Assembly: GCA_030698565.1 (NCBI GenBank)
Contig: JAUYJS010000003.1
Location: forward strand, 12,187 to 76,186
Origin: Candidatus Shapirobacteria bacterium
Lineage (GTDB): Bacteria > Patescibacteriota > Microgenomatia > UBA12405
Direction: 5' to 3'
DNA length: 64,000 nucleotides
Below, one piece after another: positions 2,893 through 63,641 of the stretch. Under the pieces are notes generated by a model, which saw nothing but the letters and a program-made list of their open reading frames with translations, was not told where the DNA came from and did no database searches. The stretch's first letter is position 1. The number at the start of each line of letters is the position of its first letter. A program made the position numbers and the translations under genes.

Positions 2893-3010
2893 TTGTCATT
2901 CCGAGCAAAATCGAAGGATCAACAAGTTTGTCATTCTGAACGAAGTGAAGAATCTAGCGAAGCGTCAATAAGTTGTCATTCCGAGCGAAGTGGAGGAATC
3001 TAGCGAGCGA
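2893..3010. repeat. Three tandem imperfect copies of a short hairpin-forming repeat (tTGTCATTCCGAGCrAArTcGAAGGATCtag), MITE-like
   Basis: The copies are at 2893-2920, 2927-2964 and 2972-3010. Inverted copies occur at 3310-3348 and a solo copy at 7661-7696. Confidence 0.7.
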
Positions 3011-3030
3011 AACGAGCGTAAACTAAGTTA

Positions 3031-3321
3031 ATGAGCAGAAAATATTTTGTTTATATTTTGACCAATTATAAAAATAGTATTTTATATATCGGCATTACAA
3101 ATAGTTTAGAAAGAAGAGTTTTTGAACATAAAAATCACCTAAACCCAGACTCGTTTACGGCTAAATATCGGTTATATAAATTAATTTGGTTTCAAGAATT
3201 TGAAGATGTTCGTGATGCGATATTGGTTGAAAAAAAGATTAAAGGATGGAATAGAAATAAAAAAATAAACTTAATTAAAGAAATGAATATAAATTTTATA
3301 GATTTGTTTACGCTTCGCTAG
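3031..3321 (+). CDS. GIY-YIG nuclease family protein (small, stand-alone)
   Basis: The N-terminus, YFVYILTNYKNSILYIGITNSLERRVFEHK, is a canonical GIY-YIG motif. The gene is flanked by inverted repeats. Confidence 0.75.
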   Translation: MSRKYFVYILTNYKNSILYIGITNSLERRVFEHKNHLNPDSFTAKYRLYKLIWFQEFEDVRDAILVEKKIKGWNRNKKINLIKEMNINFIDLFTLR

Positions 3322-3348
3322 ATCCTTCGTTGTACTCAGGATGACAAT
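3310..3348. repeat. Inverted copy of the 2893-3010 repeat, overlapping the GIY-YIG stop codon
   Basis: The sequence acgcttcgctagatccttcgttgtactcaggatgacaat is the reverse complement of the upstream repeat consensus. Confidence 0.65.
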
Positions 3349-5144: not shown

Positions 5145-7106
5145 ATGATCACCCTCGACAAACTCGATCTACAAAAAATGTCTCCCGAGGAAATGGGCGA
5201 ACTTTTGGTCGAAGCCAAAAAGGCTTACTACATAACTAGTAAACCAATAATGGACGATCATACTTACGATACATTAGAGGAAATTTTACGTCAAAAAAGT
5301 CCTTATCATCGGCTTTTTAGTAAAGTCGGCAATCAGAATTTTGATACCGGATTCAATAAAAAAAAGCACACCATGCCTATGGGTTCTCAAAACAAAGTAA
5401 ATATCTACACTGATTTAATTCATTACTTCGAACTCAAGCAAAAGGCTGCAGGCGACATTGATATGAACAGTATTTCTTACGTTGTTCAACCCAAATGCGA
5501 TGGTATTTCTTTGGAAATTGAATATAAAAATGGTCAATTAGTCGACGCCATTACTCGTGGTGATGGGGAAATAGGAGACGTGATTACCCAAAATGTCGTT
5601 AAAATGAAAAATTTTGTCCCAGAAATTAAAGATGATTTTACCGGCTCCGTCCGCTGTGAAATTGTCATGACATTTGAAAATTTTAAAAAAATAAACGACC
5701 TACAAAACATTTATTCCAACCCTCGCAACGCCGCCTCTGGTATATCTCAACGTCTCGACAGTAAATATTCCGAATATTGTAGTCTCTATGCTGTCGATAT
5801 TTATTCATATAATGTACGGGCGATTCACGAATCGCCCTTTTCATCTGAAATTCAAAAAATTGAATATTTAAAAAAACACAATTTTGTTACTGTCGATACT
5901 CTCTGTTGTCCAAAAATTAACGAAGTAGAGCCGATCTATCAAAAATATTTAACCGAAGATCGCAGAGCGTATCCTTTTGAAATCGACGGTTTGGTTATCA
6001 AAATAAACGATCTTGATTTGCAAAGAAAACTTGGTTTTCATAATAACCGGCCCAAAGGTCAAGTTGCCTACAAATTTCCCTCAAAAACCAACCAAACTAG
6101 AATTTTATCGGTTAACTGGCAAGTCGGTCCGATGGGGACTATCACACCCGTTGCCCAAGTTGAACCGATTGAAATTTCTGGTGCTGTTATTACATTTGCA
6201 TCGCTCGCCAATTACCAACTTATCAAAGATAAAAATATAAATGTGGGAGATGTAGTTGAAGTCAGCCGCCGGGGAGATGTTATTCCTCACATCGACAAAG
6301 TAATTACTAAAGTCAACGAAGGTCATTTTTTAGCACCAACACTCTGTCCCTCATGCGACACCAAACTTATTTTGGAAGATAAATTTTTGCGTTGTCCCAA
6401 TATTTCTAGTTGTCCAGCTCAAATTTTTGGAAGTCTCAAATTATTTTGTGACGCCCTCGATATTAAAGGCATTTCCGATAAAACCATAGAAAAACTTTAC
6501 CAAGCTAGTCGTGTTCGTTTGCCAGGCGATTTTTATAAATTAAAAATTTCTGATTTTGAAGATTTAGCTGGCTTGGGAACCAAATCGGGAACCAATATTG
6601 TCAAACAAATTCAGGACAAAAAAACCTTAAATCTAAAACAAGTACTAGGTGCCGCCATTATTCCAAATTTTAGCAACGCTCGGATTCAACAGATTATTAA
6701 TGCTGGCTTTGACACTCCCGATAAAATCTTAAATATTACCACAGACCAATTAGAAAACCTGCCGGGAGTTAAACAAACATTGGCTCAAAAAATTTATCAA
6801 GGCATTCAGTCGCGTAAAAATTTTATCGAATCAATACTTGCTCAAGTTAGCATAAAGAAAATTAGCCAATCTCAAAAATTAGCCAACCAAACTTTCGTAA
6901 TAACTGGAAGCCTAGATCATCCTCGTGAGGAAATCATAAATGAAATCGAATCACTCGGCGGCAAAGTTGTTTCAACCGTCAGCCAAAATACTTCTTATCT
7001 TATTACCAACGAAACCAACTCCAATTCTTCCAAATTTGTCACCGCTCAAAAATTAGGAACCAAGATAATCAATGAAGCTGAATTCTATGATTTAATTAAC
7101 CAATGA
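5145..7106 (+). CDS. ligA: NAD-dependent DNA ligase
   Basis: It has the adenylation motif KCDG (VQPKCDGISLEIEY), zinc-finger cysteines, HhH and a C-terminal BRCT-like region, in 653 aa. Confidence 0.9.
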   Translation: MITLDKLDLQKMSPEEMGELLVEAKKAYYITSKPIMDDHTYDTLEEILRQKSPYHRLFSKVGNQNFDTGFNKKKHTMPMGSQNKVNIYTDLIHYFELKQKAAGDIDMNSISYVVQPKCDGISLEIEYKNGQLVDAITRGDGEIGDVITQNVVKMKNFVPEIKDDFTGSVRCEIVMTFENFKKINDLQNIYSNPRNAASGISQRLDSKYSEYCSLYAVDIYSYNVRAIHESPFSSEIQKIEYLKKHNFVTVDTLCCPKINEVEPIYQKYLTEDRRAYPFEIDGLVIKINDLDLQRKLGFHNNRPKGQVAYKFPSKTNQTRILSVNWQVGPMGTITPVAQVEPIEISGAVITFASLANYQLIKDKNINVGDVVEVSRRGDVIPHIDKVITKVNEGHFLAPTLCPSCDTKLILEDKFLRCPNISSCPAQIFGSLKLFCDALDIKGISDKTIEKLYQASRVRLPGDFYKLKISDFEDLAGLGTKSGTNIVKQIQDKKTLNLKQVLGAAIIPNFSNARIQQIINAGFDTPDKILNITTDQLENLPGVKQTLAQKIYQGIQSRKNFIESILAQVSIKKISQSQKLANQTFVITGSLDHPREEIINEIESLGGKVVSTVSQNTSYLITNETNSNSSKFVTAQKLGTKIINEAEFYDLINQ

Positions 7107-46528: not shown

Positions 46529-46556
46529 GTAGAGACGCGCTGCAGCGCGTCTCTAC
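46529..46556. repeat. REP family B palindrome (GTAGAGACGCGCTGCAGCGCGTCTCTAC)
   Basis: It is a perfect 28-nt palindrome. Together with about 35 nt of 3' flank it is nearly identical to 63577-63638. Confidence 0.8.
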
Positions 46557-46591
46557 AACTTGTCAAATTTTTTAATAAAATCACACCTATC

Positions 46592-46619
46592 GTAGGGGCG
46601 ATTCATGAATCGCCCCTAC
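46592..46619. repeat. REP family A palindrome (GTAGGGGCGATTCATGAATCGCCCCTAC)
   Basis: It is a perfect 28-nt palindrome. Five more copies lie around the RAYT gene at 54997-55683. Confidence 0.8.
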
Positions 46620-51384: not shown

Positions 51385-53244
51385 TTATTTTAATTTATTT
51401 TCTAACCAGATAGCAAAATCGACTAAACTTACATACCCATCACAATTAGCATCAGCTTGGTAATTATTCTTAATAACCTTTCGTCCATCTCCCGTATATT
51501 CACCTACCCAAATATCAAAATCAGACTTATCAGCTTTTGCACTTGTACAACTAAAACGACCACTTTTTCTCTTAATATTGTCAGAATCGTTAGCGCAAGG
51601 GGTGCAAACTGCCGCTACCGGATGATCTAACTTACAACCATTCTCACTTGTGTAACAATCTTTATCGCCTCCACAATTTTTACAATTTCCACCAACGGCT
51701 AATTCACTACAGACCGTCCCTGTATACACCCATCTTTTGTCAGTCAGTGCCACCGAACTACTCGTTCCTGTACAATTTATGGTTCCTGATTGATTAGTTT
51801 GATCAGTTTCATTAATTTTGCAACATACATAATTTTTATTACTACAAGTACCTGTCACTTTAGATCCTTCAGCAGCACATATTGGCGCACCCATACAAAT
51901 AGATCCAGACGGGCAACTGTCTGCTACTGGTGCTACCGGATGATCTAACTTACAACCATTCTCAGTGGTGTAACAATCTTTATCGCCACCACAATTTTTA
52001 CAATTTCCACCAACGGCTAATTCACTACAGACCGTCCCTGTATACACCCATCTTTTGTCAGTCAGTGCCACCGAACTACTCGTTCCTGTACAATTTATTG
52101 CCGCTACTGTTGCAACACAAACACCACTCGCATTTCTAGTTAGAGGTGCCACACATTTATCTACACAATCCCCAGTTGTTCCAGTTAACTGTTTAAAATC
52201 TTTCCCTTTATTAGTACACACTTCCGGTGCTAATTGACTATTACAAACCCGGCTACCACCACTACCACTACATTCACATTTGTATGGTCCTCCATCACTT
52301 GAAAATTGTCCACAAGCCGTTCCACCAAAACACTGAGTGCAATCTGCGGCGGTTGCGGTCGTCTGCCCCACTCCATTCTGATTGTCTGTAGGACAAACTT
52401 GCGGCTTTGCTGAGCAAGTAAATCTCACCCCTTCTTCAACATCTACAGTGTCATTTGGGTTATTACATTTTGGACAATATTTTTCTACAAGCTCTACTAA
52501 CTTCTTCTGATAACTATCAACATAAATCTTACATTGCGATTCTGCGTCATAACATGTAAATACACCACATGGACCAGTGTCACTAACAGAAGTCTGCTCA
52601 TAGCTAATACAACTTTTATCATCTTTACTATACCAATAGGTTTTTCCTACTCTGTTACCAACATCAGTTGGAGCCACACATTTCCCACCAGTACAAGTCA
52701 AACCAACTTGGCAAGTAGTTTGAGATAACCCAGCTGTACAGGCTTCATTTTCAGCCGCTGGATGAGCTTGTTGACAACCACTTAATGCTGTATAGCACTC
52801 AACTTTACTTTTATCATTAGGATAGCAACCTAAACAATTACTAACCGGTCCACTAGTACATACATTATTAATAACTTGAAATCTCGTTTCAGTTAGCGGA
52901 ATTTTTGGATTATCACAAGTTGTTGATGCTGGTGGTTGTACCACCACACCGCCTGCTGCTGGTTGTGCTTCTGGAGTACAGTTCCTTCTCGTCTCTGCTG
53001 TTACATCCCTTTCTTGACAACCAGCAGGTAAAATTGATTTTATTTGCCTTGTTTGAAAACCAGAAGGATAACAAATTCCCCATTGATCAAAAAAAGTATA
53101 GTCGCAAGCTACTGTCGCCTTGCTTCTATTCTCCTGATTATTCTGCACTAATTTTGTCATCGCCGGCAAGGCAACCGCCATCAACAACAAGCCAACCATT
53201 ATAGGAATTTGAGCGAAACCAGCAATTTTTTTAAATTTAGCCAT
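51385..53244 (-). CDS. Secreted Cys-rich repeat protein with a dockerin-like C-terminus; it contains a recent 106-codon tandem duplication
   Basis: It has a signal peptide and more than 60 Cys. The module INCTGTSSSVALTDKRWVYTGTVCSELAVGGNCKNCGGDKDCYT.ENGCKLDHPVA occurs twice and is nearly identical at the DNA level. The C-terminus reads DANCDGYVSLVDFAIWLENKL. Confidence 0.4.
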   Translation of the reverse strand: MAKFKKIAGFAQIPIMVGLLLMAVALPAMTKLVQNNQENRSKATVACDYTFFDQWGICYPSGFQTRQIKSILPAGCQERDVTAETRRNCTPEAQPAAGGVVVQPPASTTCDNPKIPLTETRFQVINNVCTSGPVSNCLGCYPNDKSKVECYTALSGCQQAHPAAENEACTAGLSQTTCQVGLTCTGGKCVAPTDVGNRVGKTYWYSKDDKSCISYEQTSVSDTGPCGVFTCYDAESQCKIYVDSYQKKLVELVEKYCPKCNNPNDTVDVEEGVRFTCSAKPQVCPTDNQNGVGQTTATAADCTQCFGGTACGQFSSDGGPYKCECSGSGGSRVCNSQLAPEVCTNKGKDFKQLTGTTGDCVDKCVAPLTRNASGVCVATVAAINCTGTSSSVALTDKRWVYTGTVCSELAVGGNCKNCGGDKDCYTTENGCKLDHPVAPVADSCPSGSICMGAPICAAEGSKVTGTCSNKNYVCCKINETDQTNQSGTINCTGTSSSVALTDKRWVYTGTVCSELAVGGNCKNCGGDKDCYTSENGCKLDHPVAAVCTPCANDSDNIKRKSGRFSCTSAKADKSDFDIWVGEYTGDGRKVIKNNYQADANCDGYVSLVDFAIWLENKLK

Positions 53245-54969: not shown

Positions 54970-54996
54970 ATTTCAAATTATACCAAAATGTTTCCG

Positions 54997-55683
54997 TACG
55001 GGCGATTCATGAATCGCCCCTACATTTAAAATTTTTCGGATTATTTCTATCTCTTTCCCACATTATCGGATTCATTCTTATATATTCTCTAATTTTTTTT
55101 AACTCAATTTCGTTTCTAACGATATGTTCATAATAATTCCGTTGCCAAACAAACATTCCAATCTCTCTAGATGCATTCATTTTCAAATATCCGATAATTT
55201 TTGACAACATCGATCTCTTCGGTAGGGGCGATTCATGAATCGCCCTGTTTAATTTCCTAATTGATCCATTTATCAATTTGGGCGATTCATGAATCGCCCC
55301 TACATTTTTTATTATTAAAATTAAATGAATATGATTGGGCATTATCTGAAAAATATCCATTACCAAATCAAATCTTGCCTCTAATTTTATTAACCAATTT
55401 TCAATTATTAAACCATTATTATTCGAGATCATCTTGCCATTAATAATGGCACCAAACATTTGCCTTCTTTCAAATGAACATATGGTTATAAAATAATATC
55501 CTCCGCCTGAATAATTCCATTTTTTTAACCGGATTGACCTACGGTGATAATCCATATGTAATAATTATTACATATTATTATTTGTACGGGCGATTCATGA
55601 ATCGCCCCTACCCGTCATCCCGAATTTATTTCGGGATCTAAATCCCGCATTCCTTTTTTGGGCGATTCATGAATCGCCCCTAC
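54997..55683. repeat. Five copies of REP family A surrounding and inside RAYT gene 1
   Basis: The copies are at 54997-55023, 55222-55247, 55279-55303, 55585-55612 and 55659-55683. Each contains GGGCGATTCATGAATCGCCC. Confidence 0.8.
55007..55555 (-). CDS. REP-associated tyrosine transposase (RAYT, IS200/IS605-like HUH), copy 1, with REP-A sequences translated in frame
   Basis: It has YYFITICSFERRQMFG (motif I), MPNHIHLIL (HUH) and WQRNYYEHIVRNEIELKKIREYIRMNP (catalytic Tyr region). GAIHESP occurs twice, and the C-terminal CRGDS is encoded by REP-A copies. Confidence 0.75.
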   Translation of the reverse strand: MDYHRRSIRLKKWNYSGGGYYFITICSFERRQMFGAIINGKMISNNNGLIIENWLIKLEARFDLVMDIFQIMPNHIHLILIIKNVGAIHESPKLINGSIRKLNRAIHESPLPKRSMLSKIIGYLKMNASREIGMFVWQRNYYEHIVRNEIELKKIREYIRMNPIMWERDRNNPKNFKCRGDS

Positions 55684-58023: not shown

Positions 58024-60204
58024 ATGTCCGGCGAAAATCTAAGCATTTTGGAAGTTAGACTACCACAAAACAACGAGCACACTTTGGAATCGATGTCCTC
58101 TCTTCTGTCAAATTTCACTCAGTTTTCATCTCCCAGCCTTTTACAAAACCTTTTTAATCGTAGAAAAACCCTAGGTTCCCTAGAAATTGTCCTAACCAAA
58201 GGCCAAATCCATTTCTTTTTTGCCTCGGACAAAGAAAACTCAGAATTCTTTCGCTCTCAAATTTTAGCCCAATACCCCACTGCCATTATTCGAGAAAGCG
58301 AAGATTATTTCTCCAATTATATCGATAATTCCCAAGACAAAAATATTTTTTTTAATCAATTAGGCAATTCCCGATCTTACAGTTACCCTCTAAAAACAGC
58401 CAAAGATTTCAAAGAAACTGATCCTTTAAATTCAGTATTAGCTCCACTATCTCACTCCACCAAACCCGATGATTTTTTTGTTTTCCAAATAATTTTAGCT
58501 TCGCCTCCTAAAAATTGGCAAAGCGGAATTATGAATACAATTCAAAATGGAATTTTAGTTGATCGACAAAAAAATCTTCACCAAGCCCATCCAGATCGGG
58601 CAATTTTCGAACAAAAAATTCAATATCCTGGTTTGGCCGCCCAAATAAATTTATTTTCCAATAGTGCCGCTCTTTTATCCTCTGTCTCTTCATCATTCGG
58701 AATTTACACTTCACCTCGCGGAAATTTTATAAAGACCTATATTCCCGGTCATTTTTCCAAAAGCAAACTAAAAAAATCTATTCTCTCTCGTAAATTCGAA
58801 ACTAAGCTAAAAAATCAAATTTTAAACACAGACGAATTAGCTGCCCTTTGGCATTTTCCCAACACAATTACCAAACTTCCCAATATTGCTTGGGGCAAAA
58901 AATTATATTCTGATCCTCCTGAAAATTTGCCAACAGCTAGTAGCTTAACTCCAGAAGAAAAAAATAAAGTTACTTTTTTTGCCAAGACAGAATTTAGAAA
59001 TAAAGACGCTATTTTCGGTATTAAAGAAGGCGAAGATCGCCGCCGCCATACCTATATTATCGGTAAATCTGGTACCGGAAAAACTACCTTAATCGCCAAC
59101 ATGGCCATTGACGATATCCGCAAAGGCCGAGGTGTAGCCGTTATTGATCCTCACGGCGACTTGTGCAACACCATCCTTGACTATATTCCTAGCCATAGAA
59201 TTAACGATTGTTGTTATTTCAACCCAGCCGATCCAGATTACGTCTATCCATTAAATGTTTTGGAAGCTCAAAACGAATCTCAAAAAGAATTAGTCGCCTC
59301 CGGTGTTATTTCTATTTTCAAAAAACTTTATGGCAATGTTTCTTGGGGTCCTCGACTCGAACACATTTTAAGAAATACACTTCTTACCTTGGTCAATGTT
59401 CCTAACTCTAATTTGGTCAATGTCGTTGAAATTTTAACCAACAAAAGTTTTCGTGAAAAAGTTGTCAGTCAATTAAATAATCAGACTTTAATCAATTTTT
59501 GGCACAATGAATTCGACAGAATGGATCCAAAATTTCAACAGGAATCCGTTTCTCCTATTTTAAATAAAGTTGGTCAATTTATTTCCTCAACTAACATAAG
59601 AAATACCATAGCCCACTCCAAATCTAAAATCAGGATTCAAGACATAATGGATCAAAAAAAGATTTTAATTGCTGATTTATCAACTGGTAAATTGGGCGAA
59701 GACAACTCCGCACTTTTGGGTGCCATGTTGATTACCCAAATTCAGTTGTCTGCCATGAATCGAGTCTTCCAAACAGCCGACGAACGTTCTGATTTTTATC
59801 TTTATGTCGATGAATTTCAAAGTTTTGCCACAGAAGCCTTTATAAAAATTCTTTCCGAAGCCCGCAAATTTAAATTAAATTTAATTGTCGCCAACCAATA
59901 CATGGCTCAACTTGATCGGACAATTCAAGATGCTATTTTGGGCAACGTTGGATCAATTATTTCTTTCGTTGTGGGCAATCAAGACGCTTTTGTTCTCCAA
60001 AAAGAATTTGGGCCGGAATTTCCAGCTGATGATTTAGTTAAAATCGGTCGCTATCAAGTTATCTGCAAACTTTCCATTGATTCAGAAACCACTCAACCAT
60101 TTTATGCTACCACCCTTCCACCTTTGTCTTGTAAAAACCAACAACGCGAAAAACTTATTCATACCTCGCAAGAACGATGGGGCAAGCGAAAAGACAAGGC
60201 CTAA
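58024..60204 (+). CDS. FtsK/HerA/TraD-superfamily P-loop ATPase (DUF87 / type IV secretion coupling-protein-like)
   Basis: It has Walker A HTYIIGKSGTGKTT, the HerA/TrwB-like motif VIDPHGDL and Walker B YLYVDEFQSF, in 726 aa, with no obvious TM segments. Confidence 0.5.
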   Translation: MSGENLSILEVRLPQNNEHTLESMSSLLSNFTQFSSPSLLQNLFNRRKTLGSLEIVLTKGQIHFFFASDKENSEFFRSQILAQYPTAIIRESEDYFSNYIDNSQDKNIFFNQLGNSRSYSYPLKTAKDFKETDPLNSVLAPLSHSTKPDDFFVFQIILASPPKNWQSGIMNTIQNGILVDRQKNLHQAHPDRAIFEQKIQYPGLAAQINLFSNSAALLSSVSSSFGIYTSPRGNFIKTYIPGHFSKSKLKKSILSRKFETKLKNQILNTDELAALWHFPNTITKLPNIAWGKKLYSDPPENLPTASSLTPEEKNKVTFFAKTEFRNKDAIFGIKEGEDRRRHTYIIGKSGTGKTTLIANMAIDDIRKGRGVAVIDPHGDLCNTILDYIPSHRINDCCYFNPADPDYVYPLNVLEAQNESQKELVASGVISIFKKLYGNVSWGPRLEHILRNTLLTLVNVPNSNLVNVVEILTNKSFREKVVSQLNNQTLINFWHNEFDRMDPKFQQESVSPILNKVGQFISSTNIRNTIAHSKSKIRIQDIMDQKKILIADLSTGKLGEDNSALLGAMLITQIQLSAMNRVFQTADERSDFYLYVDEFQSFATEAFIKILSEARKFKLNLIVANQYMAQLDRTIQDAILGNVGSIISFVVGNQDAFVLQKEFGPEFPADDLVKIGRYQVICKLSIDSETTQPFYATTLPPLSCKNQQREKLIHTSQERWGKRKDKA

Positions 60205-62919: not shown

Positions 62920-63576
62920 TTAATAACAAACATCTTTCTGCCAATTTTTGGGATTATTATCAATATATTGTTTAATCGCCCAATATTCCTTTTCTGTCCG
63001 GATAATCCGATCATAATATCGGGCTTGCCAGGTGAAAAATAACTGGTGACGGTTACATTCTGATTTGACCGCCGCCTTAAATAATTTAATTGTATTGGGA
63101 ATAATTTGCCTTGATTTAAATCCATTTTCCCGTAGAGACGCACTGTGTGCGTCTCTTTTCAATTCCCGATTATTTTGGTTTATCGGTTTGATTTGATTGA
63201 TGATTGGGGAATTTGTTTTGAGACGCATACAATGCGTCTCTACAATGGGTTGATTTTTAATTTCCATTATCAAATGCACATGATTGGGCATAATCACCCA
63301 ATCATCTATTTTAATATTTTTCCTAATTTCCGAGGTTTTTAATAATTCCTGTTTAGCAATTTCTCCCGCCTTGGACAATTTCATTTGACCATCAACAATT
63401 TTTCCCAAGAATTTATTTTTATTATGGGTACAAATGGTAATAAAATAAAACCCTGATTGAGAATAATTCCAATTTAATAACCTCGCCGATTTCACTCGAA
63501 ATTTATCCGCAAACAAATCTGGGTTATCAACAAACATTACATTAATTGTAATATTTATTGCATTAATATGTTGCAT
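62920..63576 (-). CDS. REP-associated tyrosine transposase (RAYT), copy 2, cognate to REP family B
   Basis: It has FYFITICTHNKNKFLG, MPNHVHLIM and WQARYYDRIIRTEKEYWAIKQYIDNNP. ETHCMRL and RDAHSASLRENG are in-frame translations of REP-B copies. Confidence 0.75.
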   Translation of the reverse strand: MQHINAINITINVMFVDNPDLFADKFRVKSARLLNWNYSQSGFYFITICTHNKNKFLGKIVDGQMKLSKAGEIAKQELLKTSEIRKNIKIDDWVIMPNHVHLIMEIKNQPIVETHCMRLKTNSPIINQIKPINQNNRELKRDAHSASLRENGFKSRQIIPNTIKLFKAAVKSECNRHQLFFTWQARYYDRIIRTEKEYWAIKQYIDNNPKNWQKDVCY

Positions 63577-63604
63577 GTAGAGACGCGCTGCAGCGCGTCT
63601 CTAC
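63132..63604. repeat. Three REP family B copies in and at the 5' end of RAYT gene 2
   Basis: The copies are at 63132-63156, 63220-63243 and 63577-63604. The last is GTAGAGACGCGCTGCAGCGCGTCTCTAC, identical to 46529-46556. Confidence 0.8.
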
Positions 63605-63641
63605 AACCTGTCAAATTTTTTTAACAAAATCACACATTTTT

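Follow-up and report, generated by a model that had tools for sequence, protein, structure and literature searches.

Two probable repeat-specific REPtrons of the TnpA-Y1 subclass 2.4 type within 64 kb of a Candidatus Shapirobacteria genome

The stretch of DNA analysed here, hereafter the window, comprises 64,000 nt of Candidatus Shapirobacteria bacterium (GenBank assembly GCA_030698565.1, contig JAUYJS010000003.1, positions 12,187 to 76,186 of the forward strand), and carries two genes for REP-associated tyrosine transposases (RAYTs), RAYT A and RAYT B, together with two families of repetitive extragenic palindromic (REP) sequences, REP A and REP B. Our interpretation, to which we assign a probability of roughly 85%, is that the window holds two REPtrons, each composed of a single-copy RAYT and its own family of GTAG-footed REPs, and that both are of TnpA-Y1 subclass 2.4 (Quentin, Siguier, Chandler, Fichant 2018, BMC Genomics 19:475, PMC6006769), which is equivalent to RAYT group 4 of Bertels et al. 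2017. It is built on what the window shows, namely how the two genes are organised, which motifs and hairpins they contain, which fold is predicted and that each palindrome type is associated exclusively with its own RAYT, and on the same pattern in relatives. A preliminary description of this DNA had proposed two REP/RAYT families with separate specificities within 64 kb. The coexistence of the two families stands; the separate specificity of each RAYT for its own REP is suggested by their association.

The RAYT B gene and the REP B elements are the following:

62920..63576, minus strand: RAYT B gene (TnpA-REP, subclass 2.4 type), longest open reading frame (ORF) 218 aa.
63577..63604: REP B, perfect 28-nt "double-foot" palindrome GTAGAGACGCGCTGCAGCGCGTCTCTAC (GTAG-AGACGCGCTG/CAGCGCGTCT-CTAC), directly upstream of RAYT B.
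63605..63635: AT-rich 31-nt tail AACCTGTCAAATTTTTTTAACAAAATCACAC next to REP B, common to the 46529 copy (46557-46586).
63220..63243: in-gene REP B hairpin H1 (plus strand, GAGACGCAT-ACA-ATGCGTCTC + CTAC foot), encoding VETHCMRL, aa 112-119.
63132..63155: in-gene REP B hairpin H2 (plus strand, GTAG foot + GAGACGCAC-TGT-GTGCGTCTC), encoding RDAHSASL, aa 141-148.
46529..46556: second extragenic REP B, identical in sequence, in the ybeY-dnaX interval; the shared tail comes next, then a REP A copy.

The RAYT motifs earlier recognised in the 218-aa ORF are all present, FYFITICTHN at aa 43-52, MPNHVHLIM at 96-104, WQARYYDRIIRTE at 183-195 and IKQYIDNNP at 201-209, and the assignment was borne out by matches to a RAYT family model and to a known fold. 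The HuH motif reads NHVH (aa 98-101) and the Y motif YIDNNP (204-209), an exact match to YIxNNP. The catalytic set is intact, with H99 and H101 of the HUH motif, W183-Q184, Y204, and N208 four residues past the tyrosine, and in an alignment of 36 homologs M96, P97, N98, H99, H101, W183, Q184, Y204 and N208 are invariant. The C-terminus lies 9 residues past YIDNNP, and a C-terminal tail domain is absent. Between β3, which is the HUH strand, and αC there is a loop insert, aa 107-157, that is hypervariable in the homolog alignment.

An AlphaFold2 model of RAYT B, made with the 36 homologs, has a core with a predicted local distance difference test score (pLDDT) above 90, at about aa 40-110 and 160-218. 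The REP-encoded part, aa 112-154, has a pLDDT below 50 and is probably disordered, and a loop predicted to be disordered would be expected to tolerate the added peptide. When the model was compared with the PDB using Foldseek, the best match was the E. coli TnpA-REP in complex with its REP hairpin (4er8_A, E=2.6e-6), with a template modelling score of 0.62 normalised to the target and a sequence identity of only about 17%, and the next matches were the ISDra2, IS608 and IS200 transposases. The REP-associated tyrosine transposase model (NCBIfam NF047646) matches RAYT B with E=4e-15 and RAYT A with E=2e-13.

The REP B palindrome at 63577-63604 touches the first in-frame ATG of the 218-aa ORF, as had been reported. 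The protein, however, probably starts at Met14 (ATG 63537-63535) and would then be 205 aa long, since the N-termini of the homologs align there and the NCBI annotation (Q8P53_00660, hypothetical protein) is also 205 aa. With this start the upstream palindrome is located 39 nt 5' of the gene and does not abut it. The two in-gene copies had been described as degenerate. They are in frame, as stated, but not merely degenerate, as each has a perfect 9-bp stem, a 3-nt loop and one foot; the core of H1 spans 63220-63240 with the CTAC reaching 63243, and the core of H2 spans 63135-63155 with the GTAG starting at 63132. Together they form a 112-nt inverted doublet with its feet outward, similar to a REPIN (REP doublet forming a hairpin), within the loop predicted to be disordered.

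The extragenic copy at 46529 is identical to the one at 63577 in 28 of 28 positions. Both are followed on the same side by the tail of about 31 nt, AACYTGTCAAATTTTTT(T)AAYAAAATCACAC, and the two tails are 2 substitutions and 1 indel apart. No such tail was seen beside the B-type palindromes of other genomes. The palindrome and its tail were also considered as a promoter or an intrinsic terminator, and a scan of the coding strand found neither; the TTGACA in the tail has no correctly spaced -10 partner. The heptamer GAGACGC occurs 8 times in the window against 1.5 expected, and all 8 occurrences are within the four REP B palindromes.

RAYT A and the REP A elements are arranged in a similar way:

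55007..55555, minus strand: RAYT A gene, 182 aa, between tsf and frr; paralog of RAYT B.
46592..46619: REP A, perfect 28-nt double-foot palindrome GTAGGGGCGATTCATGAATCGCCCCTAC, 27 nt past the ybeY stop.
54996..55023: REP A copy (GTAC...CTAC) across the 3' end of RAYT A.
55222..55245: in-gene REP A hairpin (GTAG foot + GGGCGATTCATGAATCGCCC), encoding RAIHESPL, aa 104-111.
55280..55303: in-gene REP A hairpin (core + CTAC foot), encoding VGAIHESP, aa 85-92.
55584..55611: REP A double-foot copy (GTAC...CTAC), 29 nt 5' of the RAYT A start.
55660..55683: REP A single-foot copy (core + CTAC), farther 5' of RAYT A.
5814..5837: REP A-like copy (GTAC + GGGCGATTCACGAATCGCCC, 1 mismatch), in frame in ligA, encoding VRAIHESP, aa 224-231.

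The two RAYTs are paralogous but different, as proposed, with 35% identity in a pairwise alignment (E=6e-33) and matches of both to the same REP-associated tyrosine transposase model, and they align as HUH transposases. RAYT A has NHIH at aa 74-77, W137-Q138 and YIRMNP at 158-163; in the latter the tyrosine and the asparagine at +4 are retained, and the residue at +3 is the one that deviates from YIxNNP. Its in-gene hairpins at 55222-55245 and 55280-55303 form an 82-nt inverted doublet with outer feet only. The REP A copy at 54996-55023 encodes the final five residues (CRGDS) and the TGA stop of RAYT A, so the present C-terminus is REP-derived. REP A cores are found at 46596, 55000, 55226, 55280, 55588 and 55660, and with one mismatch at 5818. 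All six cores outside ligA are identical over 20 nt, and several of the left feet read GTAC instead of GTAG, the opposite foot being CTAC. For each of the two palindrome patterns, dinucleotide-preserving shuffles gave an expectation of 0 matches.

The preliminary description had also stated that each RAYT has a distinct palindrome and that both families occur elsewhere in the window, and the copies bear this out. Each RAYT gene contains and adjoins only its own type, and REP B recurs at 46529-46556 and REP A at 46592-46619; the latter starts 35 nt after the REP B copy, so that the two form a mixed cluster reminiscent of a bacterial interspersed mosaic element (BIME). The REP A-like copy in ligA (ORF 5145-7106, plus strand) was considered as a clean insertion. 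In an alignment with the LigA of T. filiformis the stretch adds no length, and it appears as a REP-like stretch embedded in a variable loop. The two REP A copies upstream of RAYT A have a further hairpin between them, GTCATCCCGAATTTATTTCGGGATC (55612-55640), which on visual inspection is similar to the GTCATTCCGAGC repeats at 2893-3000 and makes up a mosaic repeat cluster with these REP A copies.

The pairing of RAYT clade and REP type extends to the relatives. Loop peptides of type B were found in 94 of the 120 best public homologs of RAYT B and those of type A in none, while type-A loop peptides (VGAIHESPL and variants) occur in 104 of 119 usable homologs of RAYT A, again with none of the other type. 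GC-rich, perfect hairpins with a stem of at least 8 bp were then counted in 77 metagenomic relatives. Such a hairpin is present in the segment between the HUH and WQ motifs in 52 of them, and the density in this segment is 3.9 per kb; over the remainder of the gene it is 0.26 per kb and in flanking DNA farther away 0.15 per kb, which makes the hairpins about 15-25 times denser in the segment than elsewhere. Where relatives have flanking REPs, the stems of these match the in-gene stems. RAYT clade and REP type are thus inherited together, without crossover, which is what separate specificities predict.

The B-type palindrome is also widespread on its own. The pattern GTAGAGACGC-N6-8-GCGTCTCTAC, with 20 specified bases, was found in at least 120 stretches of species-representative genomes, and by our own estimate about three matches are expected by chance. 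Among the matches listed, the hosts belong to Bacteroidota, Cyanobacteria, Chloroflexota, Acidobacteriota, Planctomycetota, Desulfobacterota, Gammaproteobacteria and several candidate-phyla-radiation groups, only 9 of 120 loci have a RAYT ORF within the retrieved 8 kb, and the central 8-mer is perfectly self-complementary in 86 of 130 copies. Most of these loci are therefore dispersed REP copies. The common form, a double-foot palindrome of 28 nt, keeps GTAGAGACGC as its outer stem, and its centre varies but is mostly self-complementary. The exact REP B sequence of the window recurs in a metagenome-assembled genome of Candidatus Binatia (L036).

The steps by which such a system would work can be outlined by homology to the E. 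coli TnpA-REP and to IS608 and ISDra2, and from what is established for HUH Y1 enzymes. A RAYT dimer would bind a REP hairpin extruded where the DNA is single-stranded, as in the template of the lagging strand, and would read its GTAG foot. Tyr204 would then cleave the strand and form a 5'-phosphotyrosine link, H99, H101 and N208 would coordinate the metal, and rejoining of the strands may spread, copy or maintain REPs around the chromosome. The hairpins inside each gene are copies of its own REP, present as an inverted doublet; they are read in frame and fall in the surface loop that connects the HUH strand to the following helix. The RAYTs are presumably catalytically active, and the loop insert is presumably tolerated.

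It is conceivable that the in-gene hairpins are not tolerated insertions but selected, functional nucleic-acid elements, for example a site of autoregulation or self-recognition, through which the RAYT would act on the DNA or mRNA of its own gene, or a protected master copy that serves to reseed the REPs. We regard this as possible but rather doubtful, and it would refine the two-REPtron interpretation and not replace it. Five orthologs of RAYT B (P0003, P0004, P0006, P0011, P0012) are located at one site, map-folD-RAYT-vanW-rnhA, with map recognised as Peptidase_M24 (loci L121, L203, L205, L206 and L207). This conserved site indicates that the RAYT has been vertically inherited and is non-mobile in that lineage. 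A sixth ortholog follows dnaB, and RAYT B of the window follows a penicillin-binding protein gene, next to dprA-topA; with orthologs located after folD or dnaB, the linkage to dprA-topA is incidental.

Seven orthologs (54-79% protein identity) have both in-gene hairpins, with position and frames unchanged, and 16 of the 21 nucleotides of the hairpin core are invariant, while the spacer between the hairpins is unalignable. Stem pair 9/13 alternates between C.G and T.A (four hairpins), with one C.A intermediate, and the linked amino-acid changes, His-Ser to Tyr-Asn and Met to Val, track the base pairing at this pair. In all, 98.3% of the cells are paired, and the observed values were reached by 6 of 500 shuffles. 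As just one of the nine stem pairs varies, this is not strong proof of covariation and the support is modest. An inversion of the doublet between the window and L121 was also considered and rejected, as the spacers align in the same orientation only (score 12 vs -43); the inverted look of the hairpins is due to the compensatory switch of the pair.

H1 and H2 differ from the two identical extragenic REP B copies of the window and are closer to the in-gene hairpins of the orthologs, and L121 retains the doublet without a flanking REP within 6 kb. Across homologs the same palindrome is read in different frames (VET..ASL, CRDV..NVST, VET..RL). A functional hairpin would explain why one loop position is used across phyla, why the frames differ and why the pairing is compensated, and the conservation suggests either long retention under nucleic-acid constraint or continual homogenisation, instead of a recent neutral insertion. 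On the other hand, repeated re-insertion or gene conversion from extragenic REPs would give the same picture, 25 of the 77 metagenomic relatives do without a perfect loop hairpin, which makes it dispensable, and Quentin et al. (PMC6006769) interpret the in-gene REPs of subclass 2.4 as tolerated insertions.

Some observations weigh against the presence of two REPtrons of subclass 2.4. The extragenic copies of REP B in the visible 64 kb are only two, one of them away from the gene, and REP A has five extragenic copies, one alone away from the gene, plus the one in ligA. RAYT B scores under the curated cutoffs of both NCBIfam REP_Tyr_transpos (NF047646; 56.1 vs 80) and Pfam Y1_Tnp (PF01797; 20.8 vs 23), and RAYT A is below the NCBIfam cutoff (50.3 vs 80), yet it passes that of Pfam PF01797 (25.1 vs 23). 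In the literature on subclass 2.4 enzymes we found no activity data. The low scores are probably an effect of the long loop insert, and the label of NF047646 as an "equivalog" model fits with them as well. Low copy numbers, scores under the family cutoffs and the GTAC foot of several REP A copies could also be taken to mean that the RAYT genes are inactive relics and the REP copies fossils of past activity. This we consider improbable. Both ORFs are intact and every invariant catalytic residue is kept, and the identity of the copies, 28 of 28 positions and near-identical tails in the extragenic REP B and the uniform 20-nt REP A cores, argues for recent copying or homogenisation.

That each gene forms, with the hairpins beside it, an autonomous insertion sequence (IS) of the IS200/IS605 type, moving as a unit, is very improbable, for the Y1 HUH fold of both proteins, IS608 and ISDra2 among the fold matches, the hairpins on both sides of RAYT A and its insertion-like position within the normally compact tsf-frr cluster are outweighed by NHVH and YIDNNP in place of the subclass 1.1 motifs DH[VI]H and Y[IV]ENQ, by an identity so low that the two are not recent duplicates, by the lack of an adjacent tnpB among the ORFs of the window, by REP copies that exist without the gene, and by the vertical inheritance of the five orthologs at their common site.

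Three other features of the window were noted. Copies of a third repeat, TTGTCATTCCGAGC...GGAATC, flank a GIY-YIG nuclease ORF of 96 aa (3031-3321, Pfam E=6e-16); three are direct (2893, 2928 and 2973) and one is inverted (3334-3347), and the region 2893-3347 has the look of a small unit of its own, mobile or repeat-associated. A Cys-rich ORF of 619 aa that resembles a secreted protein (51385-53244, minus strand) contains a 173-nt segment twice, at 51608-51780 and 51926-52098, 318 nt apart and with 97% identity, which encodes a duplicated INCTGTSSSVALTDKRWVYTGTVCSELAVGGNCKNCGGDKDCYT module. Beside topA, a 726-aa ORF (58024-60204, plus strand) has weak matches to coupling ATPases of the TraD/VirD4 type, with E=4e-13 and far under the curated cutoff.

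The window is a clear case of two REPtrons of subclass 2.4, probably repeat-specific, that coexist in a reduced genome of the candidate phyla radiation, and that two such systems are kept in a reduced genome speaks against the view that they are pure junk. The finding leaves the current picture of RAYTs as it is. The pairing of clade and REP type, the GTAGAGACGC stem shared across phyla and the conservation of the hairpin DNA are a starting point for work on the role of in-gene REPs.

The arrangement itself has already been published as the signature of TnpA-Y1 subclass 2.4, and what is new is limited to the host lineage and some comparative detail. According to Quentin et al. (PMC6006769) this subclass is characterised by the HuH motif NH[IFV]H, a WQ before β4 and the Y motif YIxNNP, by a median length of 194 aa, no C-terminal tail and a variable insertion between β3 and αC, by REPs of a long or "double-foot" form whose opposite ends carry GT[AG]G and C[TC]AC, and by an average of 1.5 copies per genome with about 40% identity. 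The window RAYTs share the HuH, W and Y signatures, the length, the missing tail and the β3-αC insert, and RAYT B agrees with every one of these sequence features and RAYT A with all but the one residue of the Y motif. The double-foot REPs within 1 kb of the RAYT genes, the two in-frame hairpins per gene, and the copy number, two genes with 35% identity, are also as in the subclass. According to Bertels et al., the most frequent 16-mer flanking RAYTs of group 4 occurs about 14 times per replicon. The differences are the YIRMNP of RAYT A and the GTAC feet of several REP A copies, the one-sided 31-nt tail of REP B, and the host, a candidate-phyla-radiation bacterium. The phyla named for the subclass are Cyanobacteria and Bacteroidetes, plus unnamed "various phyla" (PMC6006769), and our literature search found no discussion of RAYTs specifically in candidate-phyla-radiation bacteria.

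With the E. coli TnpA-REP (subclass 2.2, RAYT group 2; 4er8), the best structural match of RAYT B, the window RAYTs have in common the elements of HUH and single-tyrosine chemistry, the metal-binding asparagine four residues past the tyrosine, and presumably the GTAG-footed hairpins as substrates. The E. coli protein differs in having DHLH and YIHYNP, a C-terminal extension with a conserved serine and no loop insert, and the E. coli REPs have longer, bulged stems and a single foot. The TnpA proteins of IS200/IS605 elements such as IS608 and ISDra2 are similar in their fold and in the logic of recognising hairpins in single-stranded DNA, but these elements are autonomous and multicopy, have DH[VI]H and Y[IV]ENQ and often carry tnpB, whereas the window RAYTs are single, divergent and syntenic in relatives. 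Finally, REPs in frame inside genes, notably genes for replication and repair and including the DNA ligase of another species, have been described by Di Nocera et al. 2013 (PMC3733652), who also found that genomes with several GTAG-REP families have repeat-specific REPtrons. The palindromes of the window resemble these intragenic REPs, and the Rickettsia palindromic elements, in being in frame in genes, and resemble the former in belonging to apparently repeat-specific REPtrons; they differ in that the main host gene is that of the transposase itself and in that the ligA copy causes no net change of length.

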